64,000 nt of DNA, from assembly GCA_964450345.1 (NCBI GenBank), contig CAYVEL010000001.1, positions 16,671 to 80,670 on the forward strand, in the 5' to 3' direction. The DNA is from an uncultured Candidatus Saccharibacteria bacterium. Its GTDB lineage: Bacteria; Patescibacteriota; Minisyncoccia; Phycocordibacterales; PALSA-1337. Positions 21,308 to 63,354 of this stretch are shown one piece after another. Positions within the stretch are counted from its first letter, which is position 1. Each line of letters starts with the position of its first letter. The translations under genes and the position numbers were made by a program. A model generated the notes under the pieces. That model ran no database searches. It was not told the DNA's origin and saw nothing but the letters and a program-made list of their open reading frames with translations.

Positions 21308-21328
21308 AATTAGGCTAAGTATATCAGA

Positions 21329-21775: not shown

Positions 21776-21804
21776 ATTTATATACTAAAGGATTATAGAC
21801 AAAA

Positions 21805-21840
21805 AGAAAGCCCCGCGAACATGAAGTTCGCGGGGCCCAC
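21805..21840. terminator. GC-rich hairpin AAAGCCCCGCGAAC-ATGAA-GTTCGCGGGGCCC between convergent/tandem genes
   Basis: seen in sequence. Confidence 0.6.
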
Positions 21841-21860
21841 TATGAAACCAACATTAAACA

Positions 21861-22886: not shown

Positions 22887-23101
22887 ATTTTAAAGACCAT
22901 TCGTTTCAATCATTTTTGGGTATCTTTTTCTGTTTTCACACACCAACAGGGTGTGTGAACTAACCGTGAATACCCCTTTTCTTATTTACTCATATTATAC
23001 CATATATATTAAAATAAATCAATAGGTTAAAACCCCTTAAAATAAGGGTAATTTCCACTAATTAACTGCCTATTCTATTCATAGTGTGATAAAATTTAGA
23101 C

Positions 23102-24769
23102 ATGTTAAATTTCGATGAGGATAAGCATAATAGTAGACTTAAAGATTTAAGAAAAAAGGAAGAGGAAGACCTAGCACAGATAATCGCTTCTAGGCATGGT
23201 CTTGGTTATGCTGATCTATCTAGCGTATCTATATCTGGAGACGCTCTAAAAACAGTGGACGAAAAAGATGCAAGAGAGGCAAACATTGCGCCCTTTACCC
23301 TAAAAGACAACAGATTAAAAGTAGCTATACTATCCCCCGCTGACGAAAAGACACAGATGGCATTAAAAGAATTAGAGAGAAAAGGTTACATAAACGAATT
23401 ATACGTCGCATCTACATTAAGCTTAGCTAGAGCTTGGGAAACATATAAAGAATTGAACAGCACACACGCAACATCCGCAGGATCTGTAAGTATTTCAAAT
23501 GATGAAATCGTTAAAGTTATCGATTCAAAACCTCACATAGAAGACATCCAGAAAAGCATCGCTGAGTTATTAGAAAACAAAAGTGGATACAGAACTTCTA
23601 GAATTCTTGAATATATTATCGCTGGAGCATTAGCTACAGAAGCATCAGACATACACATCGAACCAGAAGAAGGATACACTCGTGTTAGATATAGATTGGA
23701 TGGTGTACTTAACGATGTGGTACAGATTGATTTAATTACATATAACCTAATTCTTTCCAGAATTAAGCTTATTTCTGGCCTTAAACTAAACATTAAAAAA
23801 GATTCTCAGGACGGTCGTTTCAGTATTAAACTTCAAACAAAAAGCATAGAAGTGAGAACATCTATTCTTCCTGGTGCATACAGTGAATCAATCGTGATGA
23901 GAATTCTAAATCCAGATTCTATTGCTGTACCTTTCGAATCTCTTGGTATTGAACCGAAATTGATGGAAGTTTTCCTAAGAGAAATAGCTAGACCAGAAGG
24001 TATGATTCTTACCACAGGTCCAACAGGTTCTGGTAAGACCACCACTCTTTATGCTTTCCTAAGAAAGATTCATTCTCCTGATGTAAAAATAATCACCATC
24101 GAAGACCCTATTGAATATCACCTACCAGGAATAGTGCAGACACAAGTTAACGAGGAAGGTTACACATTCCTAGATGGTCTACGTGCAGCATTAAGACAAG
24201 ACCCTGAAATAATCATGGTCGGTGAAATTCGAGATTCAGAAACAGCAAAAATTGCTATTAACTCTGCCCAAACAGGTCACTTGGTTTTCTCAACACTACA
24301 CACGAATAGCGCCGCTGGTGCCTTCCCTCGTCTAATCGACCTAGGAGTTAACCCAAACGTTATTACTTCATCTATTAACTTAGTTATTGGTCAGAGACTA
24401 GTGAGATGTTTATGTAAATTCTGTAAAAAAGAAGTCCCTATCGAAGGTGAAACAAAAGCTCTTATAGATAGAATATATGCGAGAATCCCGGAAGATTTCA
24501 AAGGAGTTCAAACAGAAAAAATGTGGATGGCTGTAGGATGCTTAAAATGTAATAAAACAGGATACAAGAGCAGAACAGGAATACACGAAGTAATACTAAC
24601 AAAAGATTCTGCCGTAGAAGCCCAAATCGTAAGACAGGCCAGCGCTCGTGAAATAGCAGAAACCGCTAGATCACAAAAAATCCCCAACCTAGCTGAAGAT
24701 GGAATACTTAAAGTATTAAGTGGTACCACTTCCCTAGATGAGGTTCAAAGAGTAGTTGATATACAATAG
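23102..24769 (+). CDS. pilB: type IV pilus assembly ATPase PilB (GspE family)
   Basis: ASDIHIEPEE, Walker A LTTGPTGSGKTTTLYAFL, His box HLVFSTLHTNSAAGAF, C-terminal Cys4 CLCKFC..CLKCN. Confidence 0.9.
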   Translation: MLNFDEDKHNSRLKDLRKKEEEDLAQIIASRHGLGYADLSSVSISGDALKTVDEKDAREANIAPFTLKDNRLKVAILSPADEKTQMALKELERKGYINELYVASTLSLARAWETYKELNSTHATSAGSVSISNDEIVKVIDSKPHIEDIQKSIAELLENKSGYRTSRILEYIIAGALATEASDIHIEPEEGYTRVRYRLDGVLNDVVQIDLITYNLILSRIKLISGLKLNIKKDSQDGRFSIKLQTKSIEVRTSILPGAYSESIVMRILNPDSIAVPFESLGIEPKLMEVFLREIARPEGMILTTGPTGSGKTTTLYAFLRKIHSPDVKIITIEDPIEYHLPGIVQTQVNEEGYTFLDGLRAALRQDPEIIMVGEIRDSETAKIAINSAQTGHLVFSTLHTNSAAGAFPRLIDLGVNPNVITSSINLVIGQRLVRCLCKFCKKEVPIEGETKALIDRIYARIPEDFKGVQTEKMWMAVGCLKCNKTGYKSRTGIHEVILTKDSAVEAQIVRQASAREIAETARSQKIPNLAEDGILKVLSGTTSLDEVQRVVDIQ

Positions 24770-28876: not shown

Positions 28877-31420
28877 ATGAAACTGTTAACCAAAATCAAA
28901 CGTCGTTTTAAGGCACATTGGATAAGAAATGCCATTTTCTTAATCTTGTCCTTATTCGCTATTTTAGGTGGAATAGTCGCTTTATGGGCCACCACAATAG
29001 AAATACCAGACCTATCTTCTTTTAATGACAGACGTGTGGAACAATCAACTAAAATTTTCGATAAAACAGGAAAAGTGCTTTTGTACGATATTCATGCAAA
29101 CGCAAAAAGAACACTAGTAACATCTGAAAACATATCTGATAACGTTAAAAAAGCCACTGTAGCCATAGAAGACGATCAATTCTATTCGCACATAGGATTC
29201 AGACCAACCTCTATTATAAGAGCCTTCCTTAAAAATCTAACTTCTGGTGGCCTAGCTCAAGGAGGATCTACTATTACTCAACAAGTAATTAAAAATACAG
29301 TATTAACAACAGACAAGACTTTTACCAGAAAAATAAAAGAGATTATCCTTGCTCTTAAACTCGAAAAAGCTTTAACAAAAGATCAAATACTAACAACATA
29401 TCTAAACGAAACTCCTTATGGAGGTAACATTTATGGTATCGAGGAGGCTTCTAGACAGTTTTTTGGAAAAACAGCCAAAGAAGTTGATCTAGCTGAAGCT
29501 GCTTATTTAGCAGCTTTACCACAAGCGCCTTCATATTTCTCCCCTTTCGGAAAACATAAAGACAAATTAGATGATAGACAAAAACTTGTTCTATCTAGAA
29601 TGCTTGAAACCAAAGTTATAACTCAAAAAGAATACGACGAGGCTAAAAAAGAAGTTGTAAAATTTGAAACAAAAGCAGAAGGAAATATTCGAGCACCACA
29701 TTTCTCAATGATGGTACGTGATTATCTAATAGATAAATACGGCGAAGATAAGCTAATGAACAGTGGTCTTAAAGTAACCACCACTCTAGATTATGATCTG
29801 CAACAAAAAGCTGAAAAAATAGTTACAGACTACTCGAAATCATTAGAAGAAAACTTTAATGCCAGCAACACAGCAATGATTGCTATAGATCCTAAAAAAG
29901 GAGACATCTTGATGCTTGTTGGTTCTAAGGATTATTTCGATCAATCAATAGACGGTAACGTTAATATTGTTACAGCTCTAAGACAACCAGGTTCAACATT
30001 TAAACCTTTCGTATATGCTACAGCATGGTCAAAAGGATATACACCGGAAACAGTATTATTCGATGTTGAAACAGAATTCTCTTCAGAATGTAAACCTGAT
30101 GGAACACCTAAAAAAGAAGGCGACGACCCTACTAAAATATGTTACTCCCCTGTTAACTACGACGACATATTCGAGGGACCGATGCAAATGCGTAAAGCTC
30201 TAGCACAATCCAGAAACATACCTGCTGTTAAAACTCTTTATTTAGCAGGAACATATGATTCTATTAAATTAGCTAGAAAAATGGGAATCGATTCCCTAGG
30301 AGATCCTAATAGATACGGTCTAACATTAGTTCTAGGAGGAGGAGAAGTCTCTCTACTTCAATTAACAAATGCTTACGGAACATTCGCTAATGAAGGAGAT
30401 TATATTCCTTCTAGATACATATTAAAGGTTGAGGATTCTAATGGAAATATATTAGAAGAAGCGAAAGATGCTAAGCCAGAAAAAGTTCTTGATACTAATA
30501 TTGCCAGAGAAATATCAGATGCTTTATCAGATAAGAAAATAAGACTTGATTCTCTAAATAATTTATTAGGAAACGTATCCCAGCCACTCGCTGTTAAAAC
30601 AGGTACCACAAATGACTATAAAGATGTTTGGATTGTAGGATATTCTCCAAATATAGTTGTGGGAGCTTGGGCTGGTAAAAACGATAATACTCCTATGCAG
30701 AGAAAAGTAGCTGGAGTTATTATCTCCCCTGTTTGGTCCGCCTTCATGCACGAAGCTTTAAAAGACAAACCTGTAGTTAGCTTTAAATCTCCAGAAAAAA
30801 ATCCCGATGATCTAAAAGCAGTGCTAAGAGGTGTTTGGCAGGGTGGAATATCTTACTTTATAGATAAAATTTCTAAAAAAGTAGCCACTGAATATACTCC
30901 TGATTTAGCAAAACAAGAAGTTGTGTTTAACGGAATACACTCAATCCTATATTGGGTAGATAAAGATAATCCTAGAGGTGATATTCCTAAAGACCCATCT
31001 AAAGATTCACAGTTTGAAAACTGGGAATACGGTGTGAGAAATTGGGCTAAACAGTATATGGAAGAAAATCCTAGTTTTAAAGAAGCAAAATCAATATCTG
31101 TTCCTGAAGAAAAAGACGATGTTCATACAGCTGAAAATACACCTTCTGTTAAATTAGTAATAAAAGACAAAAAAGAATCTTACATTGCAAAAGATTCTCT
31201 GGAACTATCTATAGATGGTAAATTCCCAAATAAAATAGAAAAAGTTGAGTTTTATTTAAACAATGTATTACTTGGAAAAATATACAATGAGAAGGATACG
31301 TTAAAGATTAACCTATCTGACATACTGTCTACCCAAGAAAATAGTGAGCTAGGTGTAAGAATATATGATTCATTACTAAATACAGCTCAAGATTCAGTAG
31401 AAATTAAGATTAGCGACTAA
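28877..31420 (+). CDS. class A penicillin-binding protein (glycosyltransferase GT51 + transpeptidase)
   Basis: N-terminal TM; EDDQFYSHIGF and GGSTITQQ (GT51); STFKPF, SRN, KTGTT (transpeptidase). Confidence 0.9.
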   Translation: MKLLTKIKRRFKAHWIRNAIFLILSLFAILGGIVALWATTIEIPDLSSFNDRRVEQSTKIFDKTGKVLLYDIHANAKRTLVTSENISDNVKKATVAIEDDQFYSHIGFRPTSIIRAFLKNLTSGGLAQGGSTITQQVIKNTVLTTDKTFTRKIKEIILALKLEKALTKDQILTTYLNETPYGGNIYGIEEASRQFFGKTAKEVDLAEAAYLAALPQAPSYFSPFGKHKDKLDDRQKLVLSRMLETKVITQKEYDEAKKEVVKFETKAEGNIRAPHFSMMVRDYLIDKYGEDKLMNSGLKVTTTLDYDLQQKAEKIVTDYSKSLEENFNASNTAMIAIDPKKGDILMLVGSKDYFDQSIDGNVNIVTALRQPGSTFKPFVYATAWSKGYTPETVLFDVETEFSSECKPDGTPKKEGDDPTKICYSPVNYDDIFEGPMQMRKALAQSRNIPAVKTLYLAGTYDSIKLARKMGIDSLGDPNRYGLTLVLGGGEVSLLQLTNAYGTFANEGDYIPSRYILKVEDSNGNILEEAKDAKPEKVLDTNIAREISDALSDKKIRLDSLNNLLGNVSQPLAVKTGTTNDYKDVWIVGYSPNIVVGAWAGKNDNTPMQRKVAGVIISPVWSAFMHEALKDKPVVSFKSPEKNPDDLKAVLRGVWQGGISYFIDKISKKVATEYTPDLAKQEVVFNGIHSILYWVDKDNPRGDIPKDPSKDSQFENWEYGVRNWAKQYMEENPSFKEAKSISVPEEKDDVHTAENTPSVKLVIKDKKESYIAKDSLELSIDGKFPNKIEKVEFYLNNVLLGKIYNEKDTLKINLSDILSTQENSELGVRIYDSLLNTAQDSVEIKISD

Positions 31421-31670
31421 GTTTTATATCTATAATATCGAATCCTCCTTCTTTAATAGCCTCCATAATCTTATCTTTCTTTAAAATAACAGTATTTTTT
31501 TCAGCGCTTCTAATATTTAGGAGTGCTGTTTTTTGTTTTATGTTTATTTTGTCTGAATCTATATTTATCTTACAGATTTTTCTGAGAATAGCAGATAAAC
31601 CTATTCTGTTTATGTCAGCATCGTCTGTTATCTTCCTATACTTCTTTAGAAACCCCTCTATTTTCTGCAT
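31410..31670 (-). CDS. small protein downstream of dnaN, DUF721/DciA-like (tentative)
   Basis: 86 aa; LLNIRSAEKNTVILKKDKIMEAI...IIDIKL resembles DUF721 core; position after dnaN; start overlaps dnaN stop. Confidence 0.3.
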   Translation of the reverse strand: MQKIEGFLKKYRKITDDADINRIGLSAILRKICKINIDSDKINIKQKTALLNIRSAEKNTVILKKDKIMEAIKEGGFDIIDIKLSR

Positions 31671-32770
31671 TAGCGATTCATAGGCATTACCAAATAGAGA
31701 AAGCTAGTATCTCCATTACTTCTTAGGATAACAGGCCTCTGAGGTCCATTAAACGATAAATAGACACTGTCCGCATAAATAGATTGAAAAACATCTGATA
31801 AATATTTTTGATTGAAGTTCGCTGAGTAGTCCTCTCCTTCTACACTGGCACTTATTACGGTTTTATTCTCACCAACATCACTATTTTTTGTTGTCAGAGT
31901 AATTGTTTTATTTTTTACTGAAATAGATATGTTTGCTTGATTAAACTTATCTGTAAATAAAGTAGATACTTTTAAAGCATTTATCAAATCATGCTTTAGA
32001 GCCACAACTTCAGAAGATGTAGACTTCGGAATAATCTGTTTATAATCCGGGAATGAGCCGTTAATCAATCTTGAGACTAGATAAACACCTTCTTTTTCAA
32101 AGGTTATTTGGTTTTTATCAAAAGAAATATTAATATCCTGGTTTCCATTATCAAAAACCTTTATTATTTCGGGAACATTTTTAAAAGGTATTAACAAAGA
32201 AAGCTCTCCTTCTATGTCCACTGCCTTAAATCTCTTTTCTGATAATCTAAATGAATCTGTAGCAACAAACACTATATCGTTCTGGTCTTTATATATATAA
32301 ACACTAGAAAGTTCTGGTTTTATAGATGAAACAGAAGCTGAAAACCATACTGACTTAAAGCCAAGTGTTAATTCTTTAGAATTTATCTTAAAAGATGATC
32401 CTTCTGTAATTCTAGGGATAGCTGGGTAATCGTCTTTAGGATATGTCTTAATAACTGCATTGTTCTTATTTCCTTCTATTTTTAAATTACCATTATCTTC
32501 TTCTAGAATAATTGTTTTGTCGGCTGCTATACCTGATATATATGAATTAAAGATAGCTGAAGGAACTACCACCTCACCTTCTTTAATAACTTTTACTGGA
32601 ATATCGAGTTCTATTCCTATGTCTAGGTTTGTAGATTTAATCTTCAAAGAGTTTCCTGTCGCACTCAAATGTAAACCAGAGAGTATCGGTAGATTTAGAT
32701 TCTTACCGGTCATACGTTCACTTAGGCTAATCGCCTCTTGAAGTTTTTCTCTAACGCATTCGATTTTCAT
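31670..32770 (-). CDS. dnaN: DNA polymerase III beta sliding clamp
   Basis: 366 aa, MKIECVREKLQEAISLSERMTGKNLNLPILSGLHL N-terminus, three-domain length, downstream of dnaA. Confidence 0.9.
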   Translation of the reverse strand: MKIECVREKLQEAISLSERMTGKNLNLPILSGLHLSATGNSLKIKSTNLDIGIELDIPVKVIKEGEVVVPSAIFNSYISGIAADKTIILEEDNGNLKIEGNKNNAVIKTYPKDDYPAIPRITEGSSFKINSKELTLGFKSVWFSASVSSIKPELSSVYIYKDQNDIVFVATDSFRLSEKRFKAVDIEGELSLLIPFKNVPEIIKVFDNGNQDINISFDKNQITFEKEGVYLVSRLINGSFPDYKQIIPKSTSSEVVALKHDLINALKVSTLFTDKFNQANISISVKNKTITLTTKNSDVGENKTVISASVEGEDYSANFNQKYLSDVFQSIYADSVYLSFNGPQRPVILRSNGDTSFLYLVMPMNR

Positions 32771-33007
32771 ATTCTTTATATATAAGAGAATTATTTTTAA
32801 TTAATAGAAGTGTGGATATGTGGAGAACTTTTTATATCTTTATTTATTAAGGGTTTTTTCTTTATAAGTTTTTAACATTTTGTTGATAACTACTTTATAA
32901 AATTTGATAACTTTTGCTTTTTTGTTTTTATACACTTTTTATTAGTAGTTTTTCAGTAGGTTTTCCCATACTTTTCCACAAGGATTCTAACAGGTTACCA
33001 ACAGGTT
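32771..33007. promoter_or_regulatory. dnaA-dnaN intergenic AT-rich region with DnaA boxes (candidate oriC/DUE)
   Basis: TGTGGATAT at ~32811 and TTTTCCACA at ~32975 (1-mismatch DnaA boxes), long A/T tracts. Confidence 0.55.
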
Positions 33008-34363
33008 TTAAACATTCATCATCGCTCTAAGCTGGCCGATCTCCTTACTTAACTCCGTATCTGTTTTAATATCGTTTTTAATTTTCTCACAAGAATGGAT
33101 GACTGTAGTATGGTCTCTTCCACCAAGCTTCTCTCCTATTGAAGGGAATGAAACATTAAAATCTTCTCTTAGAATATACATAACTACTTGGCGAGGTTTA
33201 ACCACTTCTTTCTTTCTGGTTTTATCGTAAATACTTTCTTCTTCTATATTATAAAACTGAGCAACGGTCTTAACAATCTCTTTAATAGCAACGTTTTTCC
33301 TAGGTCTAGCTGTGTCTCTTACGATGTTTTTAATATCAATAATACTCAAAGGGCGACCCTTAATCTGTGTTTGTATGACAATACTATTTAAAACACCTTC
33401 AAGCTCTCTTATATTCCCTGTAACTGTTTCAGAAAGGTAATCAATAACATCTTGGTTTAATATTAGATTGTAAGTTTTTGCCTTTGATTGAAGGATGGCT
33501 GATCTAGACTGAGCGTCTGGTGAAGGAATATCAATAATCATTCCAGCTCCGAATCTAGACTTTAGACGGTCTTCCAGATTCTGAATATAGTTAGGATGTT
33601 TATCTGAAGAAAAGATAATCTGCTTAAAATTGTCGTATAAATGATTAAACAAATGGAAAAGCTCTTCCTGGAATTTATCCTTTCCAGAGAAAAATTGAAT
33701 ATCATCTACAATTAAAAGATCATATTTTCTATACTTTTCTTTAAACTGGGCCATTCTACTGTTTTGAATAGCATCCCAACACTCAGTTCCGAATTTTTCA
33801 GAGGTTAAATAGAATACTTTCTTATTTGGAAAATGTTTTTTAACATGATTACCTATAGCTTGGGTTAAATGGGTCTTCCCTATTCCGGTATTACCGTAAA
33901 TAAATAGAGGGTTATAAACTTTTCCTGGATTTTTAATAACAGCTTGAGCTGCTGCGTGGGCAATTTCATTAAAAGGACCAATAACAAAGTTTTCAAATGT
34001 ATATCTAGGGTTTAGATTGTCTTCTTTATTAACATAAAGCTCGTTTAGAGGTAGTTCATTATACATATGAGCCTTTATCGCTGCAGCAGATGTTTCGCAC
34101 TTCTTGGGGTCTTTTTGCTCGTTGATGACATATTCTAGACCACGAACAGCATCATTGTGATTTCTTAGTATTCTTAAGATTGAATTATGAAACTTCTTCC
34201 AAAGCCACTCTTTTATGAATGTGCTTGGAACATTCAGATAAACTATACCGTCTTCTACTCTGTGGATGTTGGTGTCTTTAAACCACATCAAATAATCACT
34301 CTTAGAAAGGGTTAGTTCTATTTCTGTGCGAACATTTTCCCATAGTTTATTGTGGTCGTGCAT
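33008..34363 (-). CDS. dnaA: chromosomal replication initiator DnaA
   Basis: Walker A IYGNTGIGKTHL, box VII, C-terminal DnaA signature GGRDHTTVIHS; start set at MHDHNKLWENV (ORF-track 501-aa version runs into rpmH and DnaA-box cluster). Confidence 0.9.
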   Translation of the reverse strand: MHDHNKLWENVRTEIELTLSKSDYLMWFKDTNIHRVEDGIVYLNVPSTFIKEWLWKKFHNSILRILRNHNDAVRGLEYVINEQKDPKKCETSAAAIKAHMYNELPLNELYVNKEDNLNPRYTFENFVIGPFNEIAHAAAQAVIKNPGKVYNPLFIYGNTGIGKTHLTQAIGNHVKKHFPNKKVFYLTSEKFGTECWDAIQNSRMAQFKEKYRKYDLLIVDDIQFFSGKDKFQEELFHLFNHLYDNFKQIIFSSDKHPNYIQNLEDRLKSRFGAGMIIDIPSPDAQSRSAILQSKAKTYNLILNQDVIDYLSETVTGNIRELEGVLNSIVIQTQIKGRPLSIIDIKNIVRDTARPRKNVAIKEIVKTVAQFYNIEEESIYDKTRKKEVVKPRQVVMYILREDFNVSFPSIGEKLGGRDHTTVIHSCEKIKNDIKTDTELSKEIGQLRAMMNV

Positions 34364-34511
34364 TTGTTTTGTAAGTTGGAAATAATTATATACCTGTGGA
34401 TAGAATTTAGAACTTGTGGAATACTTAAAAATATGTTGAGAAGCTGTTAATAACCTGTGGACACAAGAAAATTTGATTTTTTGCAAATAATGTTCTAAAC
34501 TCTTATTCATC
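34364..34511. promoter_or_regulatory. dnaA upstream region with three DnaA-box-like TGTGGA elements
   Basis: TGTGGATAG, TGTGGAATA, TGTGGACAC within ~90 bp. Confidence 0.55.
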
Positions 34512-34658
34512 ATGTCGTTTACTTATAGTCCAAACAAAAAGAAGAGAGCACAGGCACACGGTTTTCTAATGAGAACAAGAACAAGCAAGGGTAGAAAGGT
34601 TCTCGCAAGAAGACGTGCTAAGGGAAGAAAGTCCCTTACTGTTTCTGCTGGTAGATAA
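34512..34658 (+). CDS. rpmH: 50S ribosomal protein L34 (not in ORF track, <60 aa)
   Basis: translation [48 protein letters not shown]; TAATG overlap with rnpA. Confidence 0.85.
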
Positions 34659-35011
34659 TGTTAAAATCCTCAAAAAGGCTTAGTAGAGCGTCTTTTGAGA
34701 AGGTTTTTACCGGAGGAAAGATAGTTAGAACTAAAAATTTTAATTTTCGAATTCTAAAAGACCCTACCCTACAGGGTCTTTTCGCGGTATCTGTCTCTAA
34801 GAAAGACTTTAAGACAGCTGTGTCCAGAAATAAAAACAAAAGAAGAGTTTACTCTATTATTAGAGAAATTAATAAAGAAAACAGAGAATGTTCTGTAATG
34901 AGTAAAAACAACACTACACAATCAATATCAGCAATAGTCTTTGTAAAAAAGACTGCGGAGTTAGAAAAATACTCCTTATTAAAGACTGAAATAGCTGATA
35001 TACTTAAATAA
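34658..35011 (+). CDS. rnpA: ribonuclease P protein component
   Basis: basic 117-aa protein LKSSKRLSRASFEKVFTGGKIV...AVSRNKNKRRV; rpmH-rnpA-yidC synteny. Confidence 0.8.
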   Translation: MLKSSKRLSRASFEKVFTGGKIVRTKNFNFRILKDPTLQGLFAVSVSKKDFKTAVSRNKNKRRVYSIIREINKENRECSVMSKNNTTQSISAIVFVKKTAELEKYSLLKTEIADILK

Positions 35012-35016
35012 CTAAC

Positions 35017-37089: not shown

Positions 37090-38115
37090 TTATTTTGTTG
37101 TCGATGCGGTATTAGTTTTTGTTGTCAGTATGTCTCGCATTCTTTTTGCGTCACTCGCAATCTTTTCTTCTATCGCCTTTTGAGTGAAAGCAACAATCTC
37201 ATCTTCAGCGTCTTTGATCGCTTTTATTTGTGCTGCGTCTAAGGCTTGAGATTGTGTGGCGTTTTCCATTTTTGCTTTTACCATATCGCTAAATCCGTTG
37301 TTCTTACTATTAAATGTTTCTAGTACTTGGGAAGCTAATTTTCCCTGATTTGAAGCATATGTTAGTTCAAGATTTGTAGAATTAATTGTTTGTAGAGCGA
37401 AGGTTTTTTGTGCGTCTAGTTGAGCATTGTAAGCATTTTGAAACAATTGAGAATTCAATTCAGTTAGTTGTTTTTCTATTTCTGTTGCTTTAGAGTAGTC
37501 GCCACTTTTTATTGCCGCTTCCTTCTCTGCTGCTAGACTGCTGTACTCTGTTTTTAGGGCATTGAAATCTTTATTGTAAGACTGAATATTTGAAATTAGC
37601 TGTGCTTGTGATGTAGAGAAATTACCTTCGTAATCATAGGCTTTTAGATATTGTGGCATTGCTAATGTGTCGAAATTCGCTTTGAAATTAACATACCTTG
37701 GGTCTATGTAGTAAAGAACTATGTAAGAACATAGAACCATTAATAGTCCGTATATAGCGTTCTGTACGTAGGCTCTTCCCTCAGATGTTCCACTGAATGA
37801 GTCTGTTGTGGCTAGTTTAAAACCTCCCCAAGATATCATGATTACTGCTAGAGCGATTCCAATTCCAATTCCTAATCTGTAAATCTGTACTAAGTAAGCC
37901 CCGAACTGGTCCTGTTTATATGAGGTCACATTTGTTCCGTCAGTACATGATCCATTGGTTACCTCCCCTGAATTTCCTGCACATGGTAGTGGTTCTAGAA
38001 GTTTATATTCTATTCTAGAGTCTGTTGTCTCTGCTTTAACATCACTACTGATGAAAGCTACAGACATTAAAATCATAAAGCTTAGAATTATGATTGTATA
38101 TATATTTCTATTCAT
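37090..38115 (-). CDS. VirB2/TrbC-like pilin-domain protein fused to long coiled-coil
   Basis: signal peptide, then two closely spaced hydrophobic helices (LGIGIGIALAVIMISWGGF / AIYGLLMVLCSYIVLYYI) as in TrbC/VirB2, then ~200-aa Q/A/K-rich coiled-coil. Confidence 0.4.
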   Translation of the reverse strand: MNRNIYTIIILSFMILMSVAFISSDVKAETTDSRIEYKLLEPLPCAGNSGEVTNGSCTDGTNVTSYKQDQFGAYLVQIYRLGIGIGIALAVIMISWGGFKLATTDSFSGTSEGRAYVQNAIYGLLMVLCSYIVLYYIDPRYVNFKANFDTLAMPQYLKAYDYEGNFSTSQAQLISNIQSYNKDFNALKTEYSSLAAEKEAAIKSGDYSKATEIEKQLTELNSQLFQNAYNAQLDAQKTFALQTINSTNLELTYASNQGKLASQVLETFNSKNNGFSDMVKAKMENATQSQALDAAQIKAIKDAEDEIVAFTQKAIEEKIASDAKRMRDILTTKTNTASTTK

Positions 38116-38116
38116 T

Positions 38117-39133
38117 CTATTGGTTTAGATTAATCCCTACTCCAGCATGTGCTTCTTGTAATAGATGGCCAGAGTTATTAATAGTTACAGATACTTGAGT
38201 CTGTCCTGTGTCGCTGGTTTTTGGTTTTAGAACAATTATTTTTTTTGTTTTTAATTCTGGATATTCTGTATAACCTATATTCCAATTGTATGATAGAAGA
38301 TTATTTAGAAAATCATTTTTATTAAAATAGAAAGGCTCTGCTTCTACTGCTACCTCATTAGCCTTTATTGATAATAAATTCGGTATTGCTTTGTTCCACA
38401 TTGTTCCGAAAATTGGATTCTTTTCATATAAGATAACTTGTGATTCCATTGGTTCAAATACAAGAGATTCTGTTCCTGTCATACCATGGTCTGGAGAAGT
38501 TACTTCTACTGAGACCTCCATATCTCTTCCTAGAAAATTTCCTGGTACTGATACCGAGGACTTCCCTCTTCCTGATTGATCTTGCAAGACCTCAGAGTTC
38601 TTCTTCCATTTAAAGACTAGGTCTTTAGAAGGAATAGCCTTTCCTTCAACGATGAAAGATGGGACAGCCACTAATTCAATATTATTTTGCTGAGTATATA
38701 GTGGAATTCCTTTATAAAATGGTGGAACTGTAGAGTTTGATGACCATAGAAGACTAACGTCTGCTGGTGTAATTTTATATACTCTTTCTACGTTCACACC
38801 TGCACTTGTTGTAATTGATATTTTTATTACACTAGTTTTTCCAGCTTGAGGAGCATTAAAAGTAAATTCTCTTAATCCTTTACCGCTCTTAATAAGCGCT
38901 CCGTTATTAAAGATTTTTACATCAGAGCTGTTTATGTCTAAGGGTGTGTAACTTGTAAGCTTAACAGTAACTAATTGCTCTGGTTTAGGAAGTTCTGGAT
39001 CAATATCTACCTGCAATGAGCCAGCTATACCTTGGTTTATATAGTCTGTTTCTGCTTTAGAGATTGAGAAATTTATGAAAAATAAAACAACTAAAGCTAT
39101 ATAAAAAAACGCTTTTTTATAGTTCGTTACCAT
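38117..39133 (-). CDS. secreted/anchored beta-rich protein of T4SS-like operon, unknown function
   Basis: N-terminal hydrophobic leader FFYIALVVLFFINFSISKA; no recognisable motif. Confidence 0.45.
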   Translation of the reverse strand: MVTNYKKAFFYIALVVLFFINFSISKAETDYINQGIAGSLQVDIDPELPKPEQLVTVKLTSYTPLDINSSDVKIFNNGALIKSGKGLREFTFNAPQAGKTSVIKISITTSAGVNVERVYKITPADVSLLWSSNSTVPPFYKGIPLYTQQNNIELVAVPSFIVEGKAIPSKDLVFKWKKNSEVLQDQSGRGKSSVSVPGNFLGRDMEVSVEVTSPDHGMTGTESLVFEPMESQVILYEKNPIFGTMWNKAIPNLLSIKANEVAVEAEPFYFNKNDFLNNLLSYNWNIGYTEYPELKTKKIIVLKPKTSDTGQTQVSVTINNSGHLLQEAHAGVGINLNQ

Positions 39134-39202
39134 TAAGTAATTCTAGCACAAAAATATGGTTATAAGGCCATTAAAATTCATATTTTTGTGGATATTTAAT
39201 GC

Positions 39203-39544
39203 CTATTTAGGCGATATGCTAGGTTTAATAGAAGCGGTTGTTGGTATTTTAACACCAAGCTTGTCTTCAGCTTTCACAAACATAATTATGGCTATTATTC
39301 CTACTGTTGTTTCTGGTAGAACTTCTAATACTGGTATCAGACCAATAGTAATAGACGCTAGATTTGTTGCTAATTTTTTTCCACTGAATACAGAGATTCC
39401 TTTTAGATAGAAAAATACATTTAGAGCCACCCATCCGATTGCGGTTACAATACTTCCTATTGCGGGTATCCAGTTTAATAAATCCATTATCACCGCTACG
39501 GTCACTAGTCCTCCAATAGCCATTTTACTCAGACGGTCATTCAT
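39203..39544 (-). CDS. small polytopic membrane protein (3 TM) of T4SS-like operon
   Basis: hydrophobic segments; stop overlaps nothing, start overlaps VirB4 stop (39544). Confidence 0.45.
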   Translation of the reverse strand: MNDRLSKMAIGGLVTVAVIMDLLNWIPAIGSIVTAIGWVALNVFFYLKGISVFSGKKLATNLASITIGLIPVLEVLPETTVGIIAIIMFVKAEDKLGVKIPTTASIKPSISPK

Positions 39545-41358
39545 TATCTTGATGATTGAGCGAAATCGTCCTTCGCCTGTTTAATAGCTAACATCTGTTC
39601 TGGTTTTGTAGATATTAGCTGATCTTCCGCATAAGAAGCCTCGATTTTAATAGCTACGTGCTTCATTCCTACGAAGAAGATGCCCTCTCCTACTCCTGAT
39701 TCTAGAAGTAAGTATTTCTCTTCGTCTGTTAGGTTAAAGATTGTTTGAATCTTATCTACTGCGGTCGGAGATTGTTTAAGTAGAATCTGAATAGAAGAGT
39801 TTGTAACAATAGGTGTTCCATATGGTGACTTTAGGAAGTCGTCCACGTCTTGTGTGATTGTAGCCATTCCTAGCCAGTACTTTCTACCTCTCTTAGCAAT
39901 CATAAGAAGGAATGAAGCTGTATCTTCAGTTTTCATCATCCACCATGCCTCGTCGATAACAAGTAATCTCTTCTTTTTAACTCTCTTAACAGCATTCCAG
40001 ATGTGGTGTGTAACTATATACATGGCTACAGGTTTAAGCTCCTCCTCCATGTCTTTAATACAGAAGACTACGAATTTCTTGTTTATATCAATGTTTGAAG
40101 GTTTGTTTACGAAACCAGACCATGTACCACGAGTGAACTTAGATAGTCTTTGTACTAATGATTCAGCACCCTCCATTCCAGCTAGTACAAGTTCAAAGTC
40201 AGAAAGTAGAGGTGGTTCTATATTAACGAAATCAGATTCAGGTGTAATATCCTTAAGAGCGTAAGTCTCTGTTATTGCTCGGTCGATGATAGCATCTTCT
40301 TCCTTTGTTAGACCTCCGAACATAATTCTAAATAGTCCTACAAGGTTAATGATGTGTGATCTTAGAACATCTGATCTAGCTTCGTCTGGAGCAGGAGCTG
40401 GTAAGTCGAATGGATTAATATGGTTATCAGAGTTAAGAGATATGTTTATGAATCTACCTCCTGTAGTTTCTGCCATGTCTCTATACTCACCTTCTGGATC
40501 CACTACTATTACCTCTGTATCGAACATCAGTGTTCTAAGGATTTCTAGTTTTGTACAATATGATTTACCAGAACCAGATTTAGCGAATGTTACAGAGTTG
40601 TAGTTTTCTAGACTGAATCTGTCGAATAGAACAAGGCTGGAATTGTGTCTGTTTATACCATATAGAATACCTTTTTCGTCAGTAAGGTCGAATGATACGA
40701 ATGGGAATATGCTAGATAGAGGTGAAGAGTTTAGTTTTGAATGAATATTTAGTTCATCACTACAGATAGGTAGAATACTCTTATAACCTTGTTCTTGCTG
40801 GAATAAAGCAGGTTTAACATACACTAGTTTAGCCTCAAGAATAGACTTAATTTCAGACTCCATTTTATCAAGTTCAGATTCGTTGCTTGCGTATAGTGTT
40901 ATGTAAACTCCTACTTCAAACATTTTTTCTTGAGCCTGCATTAAACTGTCTCTAAGATTTTCTAGATCTTGGTATGCAGTGTCTAGCATTGGGTCACGAA
41001 CCAGTCCCCTCTTCTCTCTGTCACCTATCTGGCTTTGTACCTCAGCTACTTTCTTTTGGAAATTTTTAAGTATCGAAGCTGTGTCGATTGGATGTATAAA
41101 AATAGAAACGTTAAAAACTTTATCTAGATTTATTATTGGAGCGAACCAGCTATCTGTTAGGAATCTTGGGTATGAGATTACGAAGAAAGTTCTAGCTACT
41201 TTTTCTCCGAGATGTAATTCCTTTGGTGTTATCTTTAAAGCTGAAGGAGCAATAATGTCCTGCAGTTCAAGCATTCCAGAATTATATATTTCATCAGGTA
41301 AAACAGCTGTTATGGCTGTGTTATTTTTTTTACCAAATAAGTTTGAAAAAAATCCCAT
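39544..41358 (-). CDS. VirB4/TrbE/TraE-family conjugation-type ATPase (ATPase portion)
   Basis: Walker A FAKSGSGKSY; Walker B RLLVIDEAWWMM; ...RKYWLGMATITQDVDDF... arrangement typical of VirB4. Confidence 0.8.
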   Translation of the reverse strand: MGFFSNLFGKKNNTAITAVLPDEIYNSGMLELQDIIAPSALKITPKELHLGEKVARTFFVISYPRFLTDSWFAPIINLDKVFNVSIFIHPIDTASILKNFQKKVAEVQSQIGDREKRGLVRDPMLDTAYQDLENLRDSLMQAQEKMFEVGVYITLYASNESELDKMESEIKSILEAKLVYVKPALFQQEQGYKSILPICSDELNIHSKLNSSPLSSIFPFVSFDLTDEKGILYGINRHNSSLVLFDRFSLENYNSVTFAKSGSGKSYCTKLEILRTLMFDTEVIVVDPEGEYRDMAETTGGRFINISLNSDNHINPFDLPAPAPDEARSDVLRSHIINLVGLFRIMFGGLTKEEDAIIDRAITETYALKDITPESDFVNIEPPLLSDFELVLAGMEGAESLVQRLSKFTRGTWSGFVNKPSNIDINKKFVVFCIKDMEEELKPVAMYIVTHHIWNAVKRVKKKRLLVIDEAWWMMKTEDTASFLLMIAKRGRKYWLGMATITQDVDDFLKSPYGTPIVTNSSIQILLKQSPTAVDKIQTIFNLTDEEKYLLLESGVGEGIFFVGMKHVAIKIEASYAEDQLISTKPEQMLAIKQAKDDFAQSSR

Positions 41359-41362
41359 ATTA

Positions 41363-41998
41363 TTATAATTGAATTGGCTTCTCTGTTTCGCCGGGGTTAA
41401 ATATCTTATAGAACAGTTCTACTACTTCTTCTGTTCCTAGTTGAGCAACTTTAAGTCCGCTTCTTGTAAGTCCTTGCACAACCACGTTTGCTCTTTGTTC
41501 TAGCTGACTTCTATTCTCTTCAAAAATGTCTATTTTTGCACTAGCGTCATCTTTATTAGAGTGGGGAAACATCTTAAGAATTGAGCTACCACCCTCTCCT
41601 AATGCTGGTGGTGTATAAGGAACTATAATAAAGAAACTCTTACTCATGATGCTTGTCTGTTCGGTGAAGGCCTTTATGAATTCAACATATTCTCTAACTT
41701 GAATTTTCATTAATTCAGAAGTTTGCTCTTTATAACGCTCTTCAAGTAGTGCTAAATATGGCCTAATATCTAGTTTTTTTGACTGAACTAGTATCTGTAC
41801 AGAAAAATCTAAAGAGTTTAGAAAATTTTGGAATTGTGAGATTATACCGTTTTGTTCGTCAGTAGATTTAAGAGCAAAGTTTAGAGAAGATCCCATAAGA
41901 ACTAATCTCATGGCACCATCTTTAAGTATTACAATACCATCTCTAACTTCTTTGATGGGTACGAAACTTTGTGAGCTGTTAACGTTTACTGTAGACAT
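41363..41998 (-). CDS. VirB4 N-terminal-like domain protein (CagE_TrbE_VirB-like), separate ORF 4 nt upstream of ATPase ORF
   Basis: VPIKEVRDGIVILKDGAMRLVLMGSSLNFALKSTDEQNGIISQFQNFLNSL pattern like N-terminal region of VirB4 proteins. Confidence 0.4.
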   Translation of the reverse strand: MSTVNVNSSQSFVPIKEVRDGIVILKDGAMRLVLMGSSLNFALKSTDEQNGIISQFQNFLNSLDFSVQILVQSKKLDIRPYLALLEERYKEQTSELMKIQVREYVEFIKAFTEQTSIMSKSFFIIVPYTPPALGEGGSSILKMFPHSNKDDASAKIDIFEENRSQLEQRANVVVQGLTRSGLKVAQLGTEEVVELFYKIFNPGETEKPIQL

Positions 41999-42438
41999 TA
42001 TCTTGTTTGGTTTTTATTTTGATCTTTATTTATTCCTTCGTGTATATCTAGACTCCAAGCAAGGTCTCTTAGCTTGCTTTCAGAAAGTCTAGGTACATTT
42101 AATGGATTTGATGAACTTATATTTCCCACTGATTTAACTGGCGTTTTAACTACTTTGTCTACTTTCTTCCAAAGATATAATTTGCTTCCTTTGTAATAAT
42201 TGAATGCTGCTTCTAGAGTAAAAATCATGGGTCTCTTATTTACCTGATAGAAGGCTATAGCAAAAGAAAAAGCTACTACAAATATTATCAAAGGTAATGA
42301 TATTATTTTGTAAGGTATAAATAAATATAATATAAAAGATAAACCAGCACCTCCTGCTAAGTATATTCCTTGCTTAAGGGTAAAATAACTAAAAAGCTTA
42401 TCCTCTACTTCTATGAATTGAGGAACCTGATAGTTCAT
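41998..42438 (-). CDS. VirB3-like small membrane protein (two TM hairpin)
   Basis: 146 aa, hairpin GIYLAGGAGLSFILYLFIPY / ISLPLIIFVVAFSFAIAFY, located immediately upstream of VirB4 genes. Confidence 0.4.
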   Translation of the reverse strand: MNYQVPQFIEVEDKLFSYFTLKQGIYLAGGAGLSFILYLFIPYKIISLPLIIFVVAFSFAIAFYQVNKRPMIFTLEAAFNYYKGSKLYLWKKVDKVVKTPVKSVGNISSSNPLNVPRLSESKLRDLAWSLDIHEGINKDQNKNQTR

Positions 42439-42452
42439 GAGTATATTTTACA

Positions 42453-43049
42453 CTAATTTAATGGTTCGCGATACGGATCAACTGTGTAATTTGTGTTTTT
42501 AACTGTACTTACTGTGGATTCCTTCAGATTTGATTCCACAACAGTTAGATTATGTTCCGTTTGATTTGCTATAGGGGTAACTATCGGAGCACTATTTATA
42601 GGTGTTTCTATTGTTTTAACAGGAGTTTGGGTTGGTGTTGTTGCGGTATTTACTGGAGTATTATTTATTACAGGGGCTACTGGTGCTTGGGTAGTATTTG
42701 GGTCTTTTGCCAAATTTGGTATTTCTGCGTCTGTTTTCTCACCCTCACCCATTTCGTAGTTGTAAGACATTAGAATTCTAGTTTTAAGAGGTTCTAGAAT
42801 CGCTGTATTAATGTCGGGGAGCATTTTAATAACGGTCTCCTCATCTACTTCTACTGATTCTATTATGTTTCCAACTAATTCAGACTTCTGAATATTTCCA
42901 TACACATAATTCTTTATAATCGCAATTAAGTTTCCTATCTGATTTATGTTTAAGTTGAATTTTTCTCCAACCTTAACAACGGTGTCATTAAATTCACTAG
43001 ACACTAAGTATTGTATTACTTCTGGTTTTATTATAGTTCTTGTATCCAT
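42453..43049 (-). CDS. hypothetical soluble protein with Thr/Pro/Val-rich C-terminus
   Basis: ORF in operon; no family assigned. Confidence 0.4.
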   Translation of the reverse strand: MDTRTIIKPEVIQYLVSSEFNDTVVKVGEKFNLNINQIGNLIAIIKNYVYGNIQKSELVGNIIESVEVDEETVIKMLPDINTAILEPLKTRILMSYNYEMGEGEKTDAEIPNLAKDPNTTQAPVAPVINNTPVNTATTPTQTPVKTIETPINSAPIVTPIANQTEHNLTVVESNLKESTVSTVKNTNYTVDPYREPLN

Positions 43050-43055
43050 ATTTTT

Positions 43056-45188
43056 TTAAATTCCCCAGTTTGCCTTATTTTTTGGATCTGAGACGTACTG
43101 ATATCCTGGTATTGGAACAGGTGGATTTCCAGCTTCAAATGCTGCTAACTGAGTACCTATGTCTTTAGCTTGCTCGGTACCACCTATTGCCTGCTCTAGT
43201 TTCTTTAATGAATTAGTATCAAGTAATTTAGCAATCTTAGCTTCCTTGTAGTATGGTTTTCCATTAGAGTCATTTGTAAATAATAGATCTCTTAACTCTT
43301 CTCCTTCTAGTGCTTTGAAGTTGTCGACTATTTCTTTATGTGGTTTACCGCTTACACCAGATAAGCCCTCAGCAATACCCTTGATTCTAGCTTCTTGTGC
43401 AGCAACAAAATCCTTGTAATCTGTCTTCTCGTCTTTTTCTTTATTATTAAAGTATTTCTTACCTATAATAGCTGCTAGTGTAGGGTTATCCTTAACATCA
43501 CTTAACTTAATTTCAGAACGTTCTTTTTCTGATAATGCACCAATTCTATCTGATAGACCCTTACTTAGTTTATCCATCTCAGATTGAATTCCATTATTTT
43601 CAGCTGTTTGATATGCAGCTAAGAAGTCTTTAGCGGTCTCTTTTGCGGCATTAATATTCTCAGCGCGCTCTCTATCGTTTTTAATATTTTTCTCTAGTTC
43701 TGCTTCAGACTTAGAATCTTTATATATTCCCTTCTGTTCGTAAGATTTCTTTAATGAGTCAGCAATAGGTCTAACTGTTTCAGCAAAAGCACCATTGTAT
43801 TTTGTTGCGCTGTCGATTTTTCCAGATATAGTCTGGTTTACAGCTCTAGAAGCACCTTTTGTTAATAATGCATTAGTAAATGATTTTTTATCTGTTGCTG
43901 CCTTTCCAAATCTTGTCTTAGCTAAGTCTGCCATAATACCTGTACCGCCCGCAGAATTTTCAAGTCTTGTAGCGAATTTCTGACCCGCTGCTTGGCCTGT
44001 TTCACTAGCAAGGGTTCCGAGGCTACGATTAACAAATCTAGCATTGTTACCCATACTGAATCTTTCTTTACCAGACTCTGCCATTTTTATAATTCTATCT
44101 CCACCCCACTCTCCTAGTGACGTACCTTTCTTTAGTGCTGCCATATAGAAACCCATCACTATTGCATATGTAACTATTGTAGAAACTAGTTCTCTTATTA
44201 CTTTTTCGAATTCTGATCCACTACTCTTTCCTGTGATTAGAGCTAATTGTTTTGATAATGCACTGTCTGTTCCGGATCCTACTAGTATTGCTAGACCTAC
44301 GTAAAGTAGAAGCATGAACATTGGAGCAAATAGAGCCGCATTTATAAATTTATTCCAAAGACTTCTTCCTTCTTTTGTAAGATCCCCAAGGAATTCTAAG
44401 TTTATGAAATTAAATGCAAGTACTGGGCTAGCAGCTAACATTCCAATCAATACTAATGTTCTAATCATGAATAGTGCTGCACCTGCAAAAAATAATACGG
44501 CTGTAATTAATTGTATTGAACCATTGAAAATTGCTAAGGTGTATTGCTGGAAACCTGTAGATAGAATTTTTGCAGCAGACCAACCACCAGAAGACTTTAA
44601 TGCGTCACCATTCATCTTTGTTAAGTTCATTAGCACATCAGATAAACCTCCACTAAAAGTGGAGTTGGCAGGGATAATTGCATTATATATACCTAATGCG
44701 AACATATTTGTGGCATCTATTATTAATTTCACTATAACGAAGCTGAAGTTAATAAAAAAGCCGGCAATTATAATGCCAATAATAAGTTCCCCGACCTGAC
44801 TCATTTTTGCCTTACCAATGATAACTTTAATTGAAGTAAATAAGAGCAAGAATATAAAGAACATTGATATAACATCTCTTATTACTACCCACGCCTGCCC
44901 TATTCCACTCATTCCATTTATTATCGTAGAGATTCTAAGACTGAAATCTATAGCCATGTTAAGAGCATAACCAGCTATTGAAAGTATGAAAGAAGTTATT
45001 GCTAAATATAAACCTAGTATAAACTGTATTAGTGCATCTGGTCTGAAAAATGTTGTCCAACTGACTTCTGTGGCTTGACTGGTAGCTGCTATAGCAGAAT
45101 TCGCAAAGAAAAATACAGCTAAAATAGCTATTGAAGTTAAAGCTATTTTAATTGATAGGTTTTTCTTATTAATAATTCTGCTAAACAT
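43056..45188 (-). CDS. VirB6/TrbL-like large polytopic membrane protein with long hydrophilic C-terminal domain
   Basis: signal-like N-terminus, >=6 hydrophobic helices in first ~380 aa, then charged coiled-coil-rich region ending in NPPVPIPGYQY. Confidence 0.45.
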   Translation of the reverse strand: MFSRIINKKNLSIKIALTSIAILAVFFFANSAIAATSQATEVSWTTFFRPDALIQFILGLYLAITSFILSIAGYALNMAIDFSLRISTIINGMSGIGQAWVVIRDVISMFFIFLLLFTSIKVIIGKAKMSQVGELIIGIIIAGFFINFSFVIVKLIIDATNMFALGIYNAIIPANSTFSGGLSDVLMNLTKMNGDALKSSGGWSAAKILSTGFQQYTLAIFNGSIQLITAVLFFAGAALFMIRTLVLIGMLAASPVLAFNFINLEFLGDLTKEGRSLWNKFINAALFAPMFMLLLYVGLAILVGSGTDSALSKQLALITGKSSGSEFEKVIRELVSTIVTYAIVMGFYMAALKKGTSLGEWGGDRIIKMAESGKERFSMGNNARFVNRSLGTLASETGQAAGQKFATRLENSAGGTGIMADLAKTRFGKAATDKKSFTNALLTKGASRAVNQTISGKIDSATKYNGAFAETVRPIADSLKKSYEQKGIYKDSKSEAELEKNIKNDRERAENINAAKETAKDFLAAYQTAENNGIQSEMDKLSKGLSDRIGALSEKERSEIKLSDVKDNPTLAAIIGKKYFNNKEKDEKTDYKDFVAAQEARIKGIAEGLSGVSGKPHKEIVDNFKALEGEELRDLLFTNDSNGKPYYKEAKIAKLLDTNSLKKLEQAIGGTEQAKDIGTQLAAFEAGNPPVPIPGYQYVSDPKNKANWGI

Positions 45189-45231
45189 TGGTTTTTATAT
45201 TATCTCACCTTTCCGAACTTTTTTGTACTAT

Positions 45232-61782: not shown

Positions 61783-61838
61783 AATATTTATTAAGCAATA
61801 AGCTTTTACTATGAGGGGGTGATTTAATAGTAAAAACC

Positions 61839-63323: not shown

Positions 63324-63354
63324 TGATTTTATTGTTATTTTAAGGGTTAAATTG

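Follow-up and report, generated by a model that had tools for sequence, protein, structure and literature searches.

The region between dnaN and rpmH in a 64-kb stretch of DNA (hereafter, the window; 35% G+C) very probably harbors a chromosomal replication origin. Specifically, our analysis assigns positions 32771-34511 as the oriC of this member of the Patescibacteria (Candidate Phyla Radiation, CPR; Paceibacteria/Parcubacteria)—a bipartite origin of the type known from Bacillus subtilis, with clusters of DnaA boxes on both sides of the initiator gene dnaA. The two clusters do not appear to be equivalent. The cluster in the 237-bp dnaA-dnaN spacer (32771-33007) looks like an unwinding module, while the cluster in the 148-bp region upstream of dnaA (34364-34511) looks like a phased DnaA-binding array placed over the dnaA promoter.

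The gene order around dnaA provides the framework for this assignment. The initial annotation had described rpmH-rnpA-yidC as divergent from dnaA-dnaN, and both the Pfam identities and the coordinates of all five genes agree with that description. To place the locus among its relatives, reference loci were collected in a scan with one genome per species, which yielded 70 related loci; gene families were assigned from Pfam, and yidC and rnpA were located in the relatives by tblastn. The closest relatives of the DnaA protein (54-71% identity) come from metagenome-assembled genomes of Candidatus Taylorbacteria, Zambryskibacteria, Paceibacterota and Parcubacteria. Every one of the 65 related loci with an upstream flank has rpmH divergent from dnaA, and every one of the 66 that extend far enough has dnaN after dnaA; rnpA and yidC lie past rpmH in every related locus where tblastn picked them up. 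Hence, the adjacency of dnaA and dnaN expected of an oriC is set within a conserved rpmH-dnaA-dnaN neighborhood. In the relatives, the intergenic region upstream of dnaA has a median length of 128 bp, and the one downstream a median of 217 bp.

The dnaA-dnaN spacer contains the elements of a basal unwinding system (BUS), as defined in B. subtilis. In the dnaA sense, the B. subtilis BUS reads TTATCCACA-AATCCACA-GGCC-CTACTATTACTTCTACTA and is located 39 nt before dnaN (PMC8287927); its complementary strand is given as 3'-AATAGGTGT-TTAGGTGT-CCGG-GATGATAATGAAGATGAT-5' in Table S1 of Pelliciari et al. 2021 (PMC8287927), with the DnaA-trios on the strand complementary to TTATCCACA (PMC8287927). The published search rule allows up to two mismatches in one box and up to four in a second, and it asks for a spacer of 0-16 bp and the pattern (.A.){3,}; the published spacing from the better box to the first trio peaks at 10-13 bp (PMC8287927). 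The module in the window has the order TTCTCCACA-TATCCACA-CTT-CTA-TTA-ATT. Its first box, TTCTCCACA, deviates from TTATCCACA at one position (two being allowed), and so does the co-oriented second box, (A)TATCCACA, which is offset by 8 bp and for which four mismatches are allowed. The first trio is separated from the second box by 3 nt and from the first box, measured at its end, by 11 nt, and three trios with a middle adenine, 3'-GAT-AAT-TAA-5', are carried on the strand complementary to TTATCCACA—a pattern for which the rule is permissive in AT-rich DNA. Within the 64 kb, the 17-mer TTCTCCACATATCCACA stands as the sole match at ≤3 mismatches, and the tandem pair of the window differs from the 17-mer of the clade at a single position. 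Moreover, by nearest-neighbor free energy, the 30-mer at 32777-32806 is the third least stable of the window (only 0.03% of positions are less stable), which places an easily melted AT-rich element, as judged by computed stability, right beside the boxes.

This arrangement recurs at the same place in the relatives. In 57 of 66 relatives, a tandem pair matches TTATCCACATATCCACA with no more than 5 mismatches over 17 positions; the pair in their spacers is of the type TTATCCACA-TATCCACA, its end lies at a median distance of 45 nt from the dnaN ATG, and the 8-bp offset is the commonest box spacing in their dnaA-dnaN spacers (35 pairs). Across the 57 relatives, the run of NTN trios that starts 3 nt past the second box has a mean length of 3.26, vs. 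0.16-0.28 in the out-of-frame registers, and at least three trios occupy that register in 35 of them. The column consensus of the clade for spacer and trios is GCC-CTA-ATA-(A/G)TA-(A/G)TA-ATA, the commonest actual spacers being GGA and CCC, and the first trio of the window (CTA/GAT) is shared with 31 of the 57 relatives. The remaining boxes of the spacer have counterparts as well: a TTATC(A/C)ACA box in the same orientation lies at mid-spacer in many relatives, and a TGTGGA(A/T)A box is found 3-45 nt past the dnaA stop in about half of them. Because the trio rule is so permissive, the case for the module builds on its conserved position and register and not on the pattern alone.

The similarity to B. 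subtilis extends from the locus to the details of the module. In both, rpmH is divergent from dnaA and dnaN follows dnaA, and the boxes are bipartite, with incA/B upstream of dnaA and incC (the BUS, with boxes #6/#7) in the dnaA-dnaN spacer of B. subtilis. In both, a 9-mer box, an 8-mer box, a short spacer, trios and AT-rich DNA follow one another in the dnaA sense, facing dnaN, about 30-45 nt before its ATG, with the middle adenine kept on the complementary strand; the unwinding element predicted at 32771-32798 occupies the position of the AT-rich element of incC. The two modules differ in that the spacer measures 3 nt here and 4 nt in B. subtilis, with the CTT of the window not being G+C-rich, and in that the trios of the clade after the first are mostly 3'-TAT/CAT-5' instead of GAT/AAT, with only three trios in the window.

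Two other readings of the spacer were rejected. Scoring TA(A/G) repeats on the dnaA-sense strand gave 2/5 in the window vs. at least 4/5 in 38 of 67 relatives, yet this scheme uses the wrong strand and register according to Table S1. Likewise, a TAT-TAG-TAG run at 32942-32950 was discarded as a BUS, since its side and orientation relative to the inverted distal box (32972-32980) do not fit and the relatives do not conserve it.

The density of DnaA boxes in the two intergenic regions exceeds what chance would produce. Boxes were scored by their mismatches to TTATCCACA, with TGTGGA/TCCACA as the core hexamer, and the two regions (385 bp in total) were pooled for the enrichment analysis. All five boxes named in the initial annotation—TGTGGATAG, TGTGGAATA and TGTGGACAC upstream of dnaA, TGTGGATAT and TTTTCCACA in the spacer—were recovered at their positions, and four more were added: TGTGGAGAA (32819-32827), TGTTGATAA (32881-32889) and two weaker ones at 34434-34442 and 34445-34453. 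The window contains 32 core hexamers (19 expected), six of which fall into the 385 bp, where approximately 0.16 (at the whole-window rate) to 0.45 would be expected. This figure corresponds to 15.6 hexamers per kb vs. 1.17 per kb in non-coding DNA elsewhere in the window, with Poisson P = 2e-8 at the whole-window rate and P = 8e-6 at the rate of the other non-coding DNA; seven hexamers within 1.7 kb have P = 0.004. Additionally, four of the 22 window matches to TTATCCACA with ≤1 mismatch lie in the 237-bp spacer, the densest 500-bp stretch of the window. The enrichment that had been proposed as a check was thus observed, its scope being the 64-kb window. In the relatives, the hexamer reaches 3.8 per kb upstream and 6.3 per kb downstream of dnaA, vs. 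0.65 per kb overall (6-10 fold), and the upstream hexamers share the same orientation in 38 of 40 cases (a bias of 38:2).

Could the clusters nevertheless be accidents of AT-rich intergenic DNA? Taken over the entire window, matches to TTATCCACA with ≤1 mismatch show no enrichment (22 vs. 17.7 expected), and under uniform placement one triple of hexamers within 250 bp would arise with P ~0.18. Chance does not account for six hexamers in 385 bp, and it is contradicted by the fixed orientation, the 11-bp and 8-bp spacings and the positions kept in ~60 genomes whose DnaA proteins are 54-71% identical; we regard this explanation as having next to no probability.

Further boxes are scattered across the window. 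Its only two perfect TTATCCACA boxes lie in non-coding DNA at 61333-61341 and 63924-63932, 27-30 kb from dnaA, and could mark DnaA-regulated promoters or titration sites. Near-consensus boxes also form two pairs. A TAATCCACA box together with a second TGTGGA is found at 50991-51007, in the divergent intergenic region between a pcrA/uvrD-like gene and an M23 peptidase gene, and two TAATCCACA boxes 36 bp apart are located at 55612-55656, within the ORF (open reading frame) at 54336-55667.

Strand composition independently places a switch at dnaA. Skews were computed at third codon positions (GC3 and AT3), reading the + strand throughout, as a way to bypass coding-strand bias. Every one of the 32 called ORFs between 714 and 32770 has a negative GC3 skew. 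Right of 34.6 kb, 22 of the 26 ORFs have a GC3 skew of zero or above, regardless of gene strand. The cumulative GC3 curve reaches its minimum at 33056 (values ≤5 counts from the minimum cover 32048-33911), and the cumulative AT3 skew has its maximum at 35046; the gain in log-likelihood of a two-segment over a one-segment model was 96 for GC3 and 123 for AT3. Both measures therefore flip between 32 and 35 kb. On the strand predicted to be the leading one outward from dnaA, G exceeds C and T exceeds A, as at an origin and not at a terminus, so that, within the window, the sign change expected of an oriC is present. The same switch emerged in the relatives: pooled over the 58 loci with both flanks, GC3 skew read in the dnaA sense goes from -0.069 upstream to +0.068 downstream, and 46 of these loci individually shift the expected way. 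That the skew inflection is usually near dnaA is also the subject of a general remark in the literature (PMC7111523). Altogether, the third-position switch at 32-35 kb and its counterpart in the relatives bear out the replication-origin neighborhood proposed in the initial annotation.

On the other side of dnaA, the upstream cluster displays a phasing. Its five boxes (a to e, in the order in which they approach dnaA) are all co-oriented and start at positions 48, 59, 70, 89 and 109 of the 148-bp region, with boxes a to c at an 11-bp period. Counting same-strand boxes with ≤2 mismatches in the relatives, we found 87 pairs at exactly 11 bp, vs. 0.0 in shuffles, and 28 pairs at 22 bp; an 11-bp same-strand pair is present in 62 of 64 relatives, and a triple in 34 of 64. 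The array of the relatives is followed by a conserved ACAAGT motif, (T/C)(C/T/A)ACAAGT, and then by TATATAAT or TATATACT, with TATA(A/T)AT or TATATACT at a similar distance from the dnaA ATG in most of them. The TATAAT of the window is accordingly a putative -10 element of the dnaA promoter. The upstream cluster would most likely bind a DnaA oligomer on double-stranded DNA over this promoter and thereby autoregulate dnaA; by analogy with incA/B of B. subtilis, it may also assist the origin as an auxiliary cluster.

Arrays of low-affinity sites separated by 2 bp guide the cooperative oligomerization of DnaA-ATP at oriC of Escherichia coli. The upstream array resembles them, with 9-mer boxes 2 bp apart (the 11-bp period) and a good TCCACA box followed by weaker TCAACA/TAAACA ones. 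It differs in that oriC of E. coli is not beside dnaA, whereas the array described here overlaps the putative dnaA promoter and may be purely regulatory.

Some bacteria unwind their origin in the rpmH-dnaA region or elsewhere upstream of dnaA. If this were so here, strand opening would occur within 34364-34511 and the boxes of the spacer would only regulate dnaN or store DnaA. The five co-oriented boxes are compatible with such a site, as are a BUS-like pattern after box e (CTATCCACA, 5 nt (ggtat) and ATA ATT ATT) and the AT3 maximum at 35046, on the upstream side of dnaA. We nonetheless consider upstream opening unlikely. The least stable upstream 30-mer reaches only the 3.5th percentile, compared to 0.03% in the spacer; the relatives have no conserved trio run in this place, their last box being followed by the promoter-like TATATAAT/TATATACT motif; many of them have just 93-125 bp in this region; and the 8-bp tandem pair with in-register trios is conserved downstream of dnaA only. 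Opening in the dnaA-dnaN spacer hence remains the preferred reading.

Several observations weigh against an origin at 32771-34511, or against details of it. Firstly, the raw cumulative GC skew of the window has its minimum at 59006. The initial annotation had proposed cumulative skew as a check, and this expectation held within the 64-kb window for third positions (minimum at 33056) and failed for raw GC. The raw, all-site GC skew is negative up to ~33 kb and then stays around zero; right of 34.5 kb, ~84% of the coding DNA is on the - strand, and the raw skew misses the switch at dnaA because this minus-strand coding bias cancels the replication bias right of the origin. Confounded by the minus-strand gene block at 35.8-58.8 kb, the raw cumulative skew was rejected as an origin locator. 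Secondly, this gene orientation is itself atypical beside an origin, as the 84% of genes in question would be head-on; co-directional coding base pairs amount to 16% right of the origin and 52% left of it. Thirdly, the skew switch has a resolution of ~2-3 kb, too coarse to separate the two intergenic regions, and the scope of 64 kb on one contig leaves room for a second skew switch or an origin elsewhere. Fourthly, the trio array of the window is short (three trios vs. 4-5 in most relatives), and the trio rule is permissive at 23% G+C, with upstream box e as another formal match. Finally, a generic sigma-70 promoter/terminator scan scored no more sites than in shuffled sequence, and the proposed dnaA promoter was not among its calls, so that the promoter assignment draws on conservation.

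The minus-strand block is a feature in its own right: directly right of the origin, ~23 kb (35815-58778) consist nearly entirely of minus-strand genes, oriented head-on to the rightward fork. GC3 skew within this block keeps the sign of the leading strand, which argues against a recent inversion.

Autoregulation through DnaA boxes in the dnaA promoter is common. The clusters might therefore serve the regulation of dnaA and dnaN alone, with the actual origin located elsewhere, as oriC of E. coli is apart from dnaA. The perfect TTATCCACA boxes at 61333 and 63924 and the raw skew minimum at 59006 would fit this explanation, yet the boxes at 61-64 kb are single and unclustered, and the third-position GC and AT skews flip at 32-35 kb and not at 59-64 kb, with the same switch across dnaA in the relatives. 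In addition, the combination of a tandem pair, trios and an AT-rich element defines an unwinding system and has no known role in transcription. In view of this evidence, we judge a purely regulatory function of the boxes very improbable and retain the bipartite oriC as the interpretation of the locus, the features of which are compiled in Table 1.

Table 1. Genes and sequence elements at the proposed origin, ordered by window position; mismatches are counted against TTATCCACA.
Feature	Positions	Strand	Remarks
dnaN, DNA polymerase III beta clamp, 366 aa	31670-32770	-	Pfam DNA_pol3_beta, DNA_pol3_beta_2, DNA_pol3_beta_3 (E 1e-20 to 1e-24)
AT-rich stretch, predicted DNA unwinding element	32771-32798		Between trios and dnaN ATG; low duplex stability
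DnaA-trio-like array	32799-32807	+	3'-GAT-AAT-TAA-5'; dnaA-sense strand CTA TTA ATT
Spacer CTT	32808-32810	-	3 nt, second box to trios; relatives have a G+C-rich 3-nt spacer
DnaA box (A)TATCCACA	32811-32819	-	Trio-proximal box of tandem pair; named earlier as TGTGGATAT; 1 mismatch
DnaA box TTCTCCACA	32819-32827	-	Upstream box of tandem pair; also listed as TGTGGAGAA; 1 mismatch
DnaA box TTATCAACA	32881-32889	-	Mid-spacer; also listed as TGTTGATAA; 1 mismatch
DnaA box TTTTCCACA	32972-32980	+	Distal, inverted, 27 nt after dnaA stop; 1 mismatch
dnaA, corrected, 451 aa	33008-34363	-	Start MHDHNKLWENV; Pfam domains and homologue N-terminal alignment
dnaA ORF as called, 501 aa	33008-34513	-	Pfam DnaA_N, Bac_DnaA, Bac_DnaA_C
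rpmH-dnaA intergenic, non-coding DNA	34364-34513	-	Wrongly inside 501-aa ORF; extension without conserved counterpart; holds box array
TATAAT, -10-like hexamer, putative dnaA promoter	34385-34390	-	21 nt before dnaA ATG (34363)
Box e, CTATCCACA	34395-34403	-	Named earlier as TGTGGATAG; ends 4 nt before TATAAT; 1 mismatch
Box d, TATTCCACA	34415-34423	-	Named earlier as TGTGGAATA; inside conserved TCCACAAGTT motif; 2 mismatches
Box c, TTCTCAACA	34434-34442	-	11 bp past box b; 2 mismatches
Box b, TTATTAACA	34445-34453	-	11 bp past box a; 2 mismatches
Box a, GTGTCCACA	34456-34464	-	Named earlier as TGTGGACAC; head of 11-bp array; 2 mismatches
rpmH, ribosomal protein L34	34512-34658	+	Pfam Ribosomal_L34 (E 1.4e-18)
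rnpA, RNase P protein	34658-35011	+	Pfam Ribonuclease_P (E 4e-11)
yidC, short membrane insertase, 244 aa	35017-35751	+	Pfam 60KD_IMP (E 7e-40)

The evidence supports the ATG at 34363 as the true start of dnaA, which makes the protein 451 aa long and the 501-codon frame ~50 codons too long. In the 501-aa ORF, the Pfam domain DnaA_N starts at residue 55. An alignment of N-termini with 14 homologues, the own genome's record not counted, showed that 11 of them (445-450 aa) begin with M-x-x-x-(K/N/Q/E)-LW, in line with M51 of the ORF (MHDHNKLW); in the other three, the N-terminus is longer (P0043 and P0061) or short (P0101), and none of these extensions is conserved. The 34363 start thus yields the expected DnaA N-terminus, unlike the 501-aa ORF, the first 50 residues of which align to nothing conserved. 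The extra 50 codons span DNA that is conserved at the nucleotide level, i.e., the box array and the promoter-like TATAAT, and the ATG of the 501-aa ORF (34513-34511) shares 2 nt with the ATG of rpmH (34512-34514). Both parts of the earlier proposal are thereby upheld: the long ORF runs through the upstream boxes into the start of rpmH, and the internal start restores a conventional DnaA N-terminus. The identical public NCBI protein, P0001 (500 aa), carries the same N-terminal over-extension, and its database annotation is probably wrong by about 49-50 residues.

The corrected protein has the complete architecture of a DnaA initiator, comprising domain I (DnaA_N), the AAA+ domain III (Bac_DnaA), the helix-turn-helix domain IV (Bac_DnaA_C) and a box-recognition motif. 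Its best relative of solved structure is the DnaA of B. subtilis in the BUS complex determined by cryo-EM (8btg, E 2.8e-100). The domain IV motif, GGRDHTTVIH, is identical to that of the B. subtilis chain in 8btg, and canonical TTATCCACA specificity is expected on this basis. The residues for single-stranded DNA differ in part. B. subtilis DnaA captures trio bases with five residues—Asn187, Ile190, Ile193, Arg202 and Glu228 (PMC10721633)—and such positions vary among DnaA proteins yet retain their general character (PMC10721633). The residues aligned to them here are Thr, Trp, Ile, Lys and Glu, so that Asn187, Ile190 and Arg202 of B. subtilis are replaced by Thr, Trp and Lys, while the residue at Glu228 is conserved. 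At the Ile190-aligned position of the initiator-specific motif (ISM), which contacts single-stranded DNA, the relatives have L, F, M, V or I where this protein has Trp. The genome with this Trp also has a shorter trio array than most of its relatives.

By analogy with the BUS of B. subtilis, the elements of the spacer can be arranged into a working model of initiation. Domain IV of two DnaA-ATP molecules would dock on the tandem boxes (32827-32811), and the AAA+ domains of the docked molecules would seed an oligomer that extends along the + strand trios toward dnaN. The oligomer could then capture and stretch the trio strand, opening the AT-rich DNA at 32771-32798, where the helicase would be loaded. 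An auxiliary role in the model, feeding or stabilizing the complex, would fall to the mid-spacer box (32881-32889) and to the inverted distal box (32972-32980); distal boxes of B. subtilis function in either orientation, via looping (PMC6669920).

A second bipartite origin suited for comparison is that of Helicobacter pylori, in which oriC1 and oriC2 flank dnaA and unwinding takes place downstream of dnaA, beside a box and trios (PMC8235120, PMC8287927). Both systems have two box clusters parted by dnaA and an unwinding site downstream of the gene, predicted as such in our case; they differ in their neighboring genes and in the reliance of H. pylori on supercoiling-sensitive boxes.

Our literature search turned up no description of an origin from this lineage, nor anything on oriC or DnaA boxes in CPR/Patescibacteria. 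The replication origin, at the strength argued above, and the correct dnaA start are now fixed for this genome. The origin is of a known type, an outcome that a specialist would expect and that holds no surprise. The module of box pair and trios, which was defined in B. subtilis and has been predicted for the majority of cultured bacteria, now also appears positionally conserved in an uncultured CPR lineage with reduced genomes, which supports the view that the module is ancestral. On the methodological side, the results illustrate that a lopsided gene orientation can make raw GC skew mislead, a problem solved by third-codon-position skew. A broader and rather doubtful proposition would be that the Paceibacteria clade has a rigid two-module origin—an 11-bp array on double-stranded DNA over the dnaA promoter plus a BUS abutting dnaN—that could serve as a compact reference oriC for the CPR; under this proposition, the shrinkage of the trios to three in this genome, together with the Trp at the Ile190 site, would hint at a co-evolution of initiator and trios.

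The surroundings of the origin offered additional observations. No Shine-Dalgarno-like purine run precedes the ATGs of dnaN, dnaA, rpmH and yidC (32771-32785, 34364-34380, 34495-34511 and 35002-35016, respectively). Next to dnaN, the start of an 86-aa ORF (31410-31670, -) overlaps the dnaN stop; this ORF matches no Pfam family, and tblastn found it in only three related genomes and in a Logan contig from SRR10083297 that has an identical dnaN. A mostly family-less gene cluster extends from 37090 to 47735. Among its products are a VirB4/TraG-like P-loop ATPase (39544-41358) as well as a PrgI-like protein (41998-42438), and the cluster has the appearance of a type IV secretion or conjugation-like apparatus beside the origin.

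Toward the right end of the window, ~450 bp (61380-61838) without an ORF of at least 100 aa follow a terminator-like hairpin (61301-61325) and a perfect DnaA box. An Rfam search of the ORF-free stretch at 61.2-61.9 kb returned nothing credible, with no match even at E ≤ 1, and 61380-61838 may represent an undescribed RNA or a decayed gene. The adjacent ORF at 61839-63413 (-) is overlapped at its 5' end by a tRNA-Arg(tcg) gene (63354-63427, -) and is probably over-extended as well. Finally, the local G+C content rises to 0.42-0.43 at 21000-24000, vs. ~0.35 elsewhere, around the ORF at 21861-22886 (-) and the start of the ORF at 23102-24769 (+).

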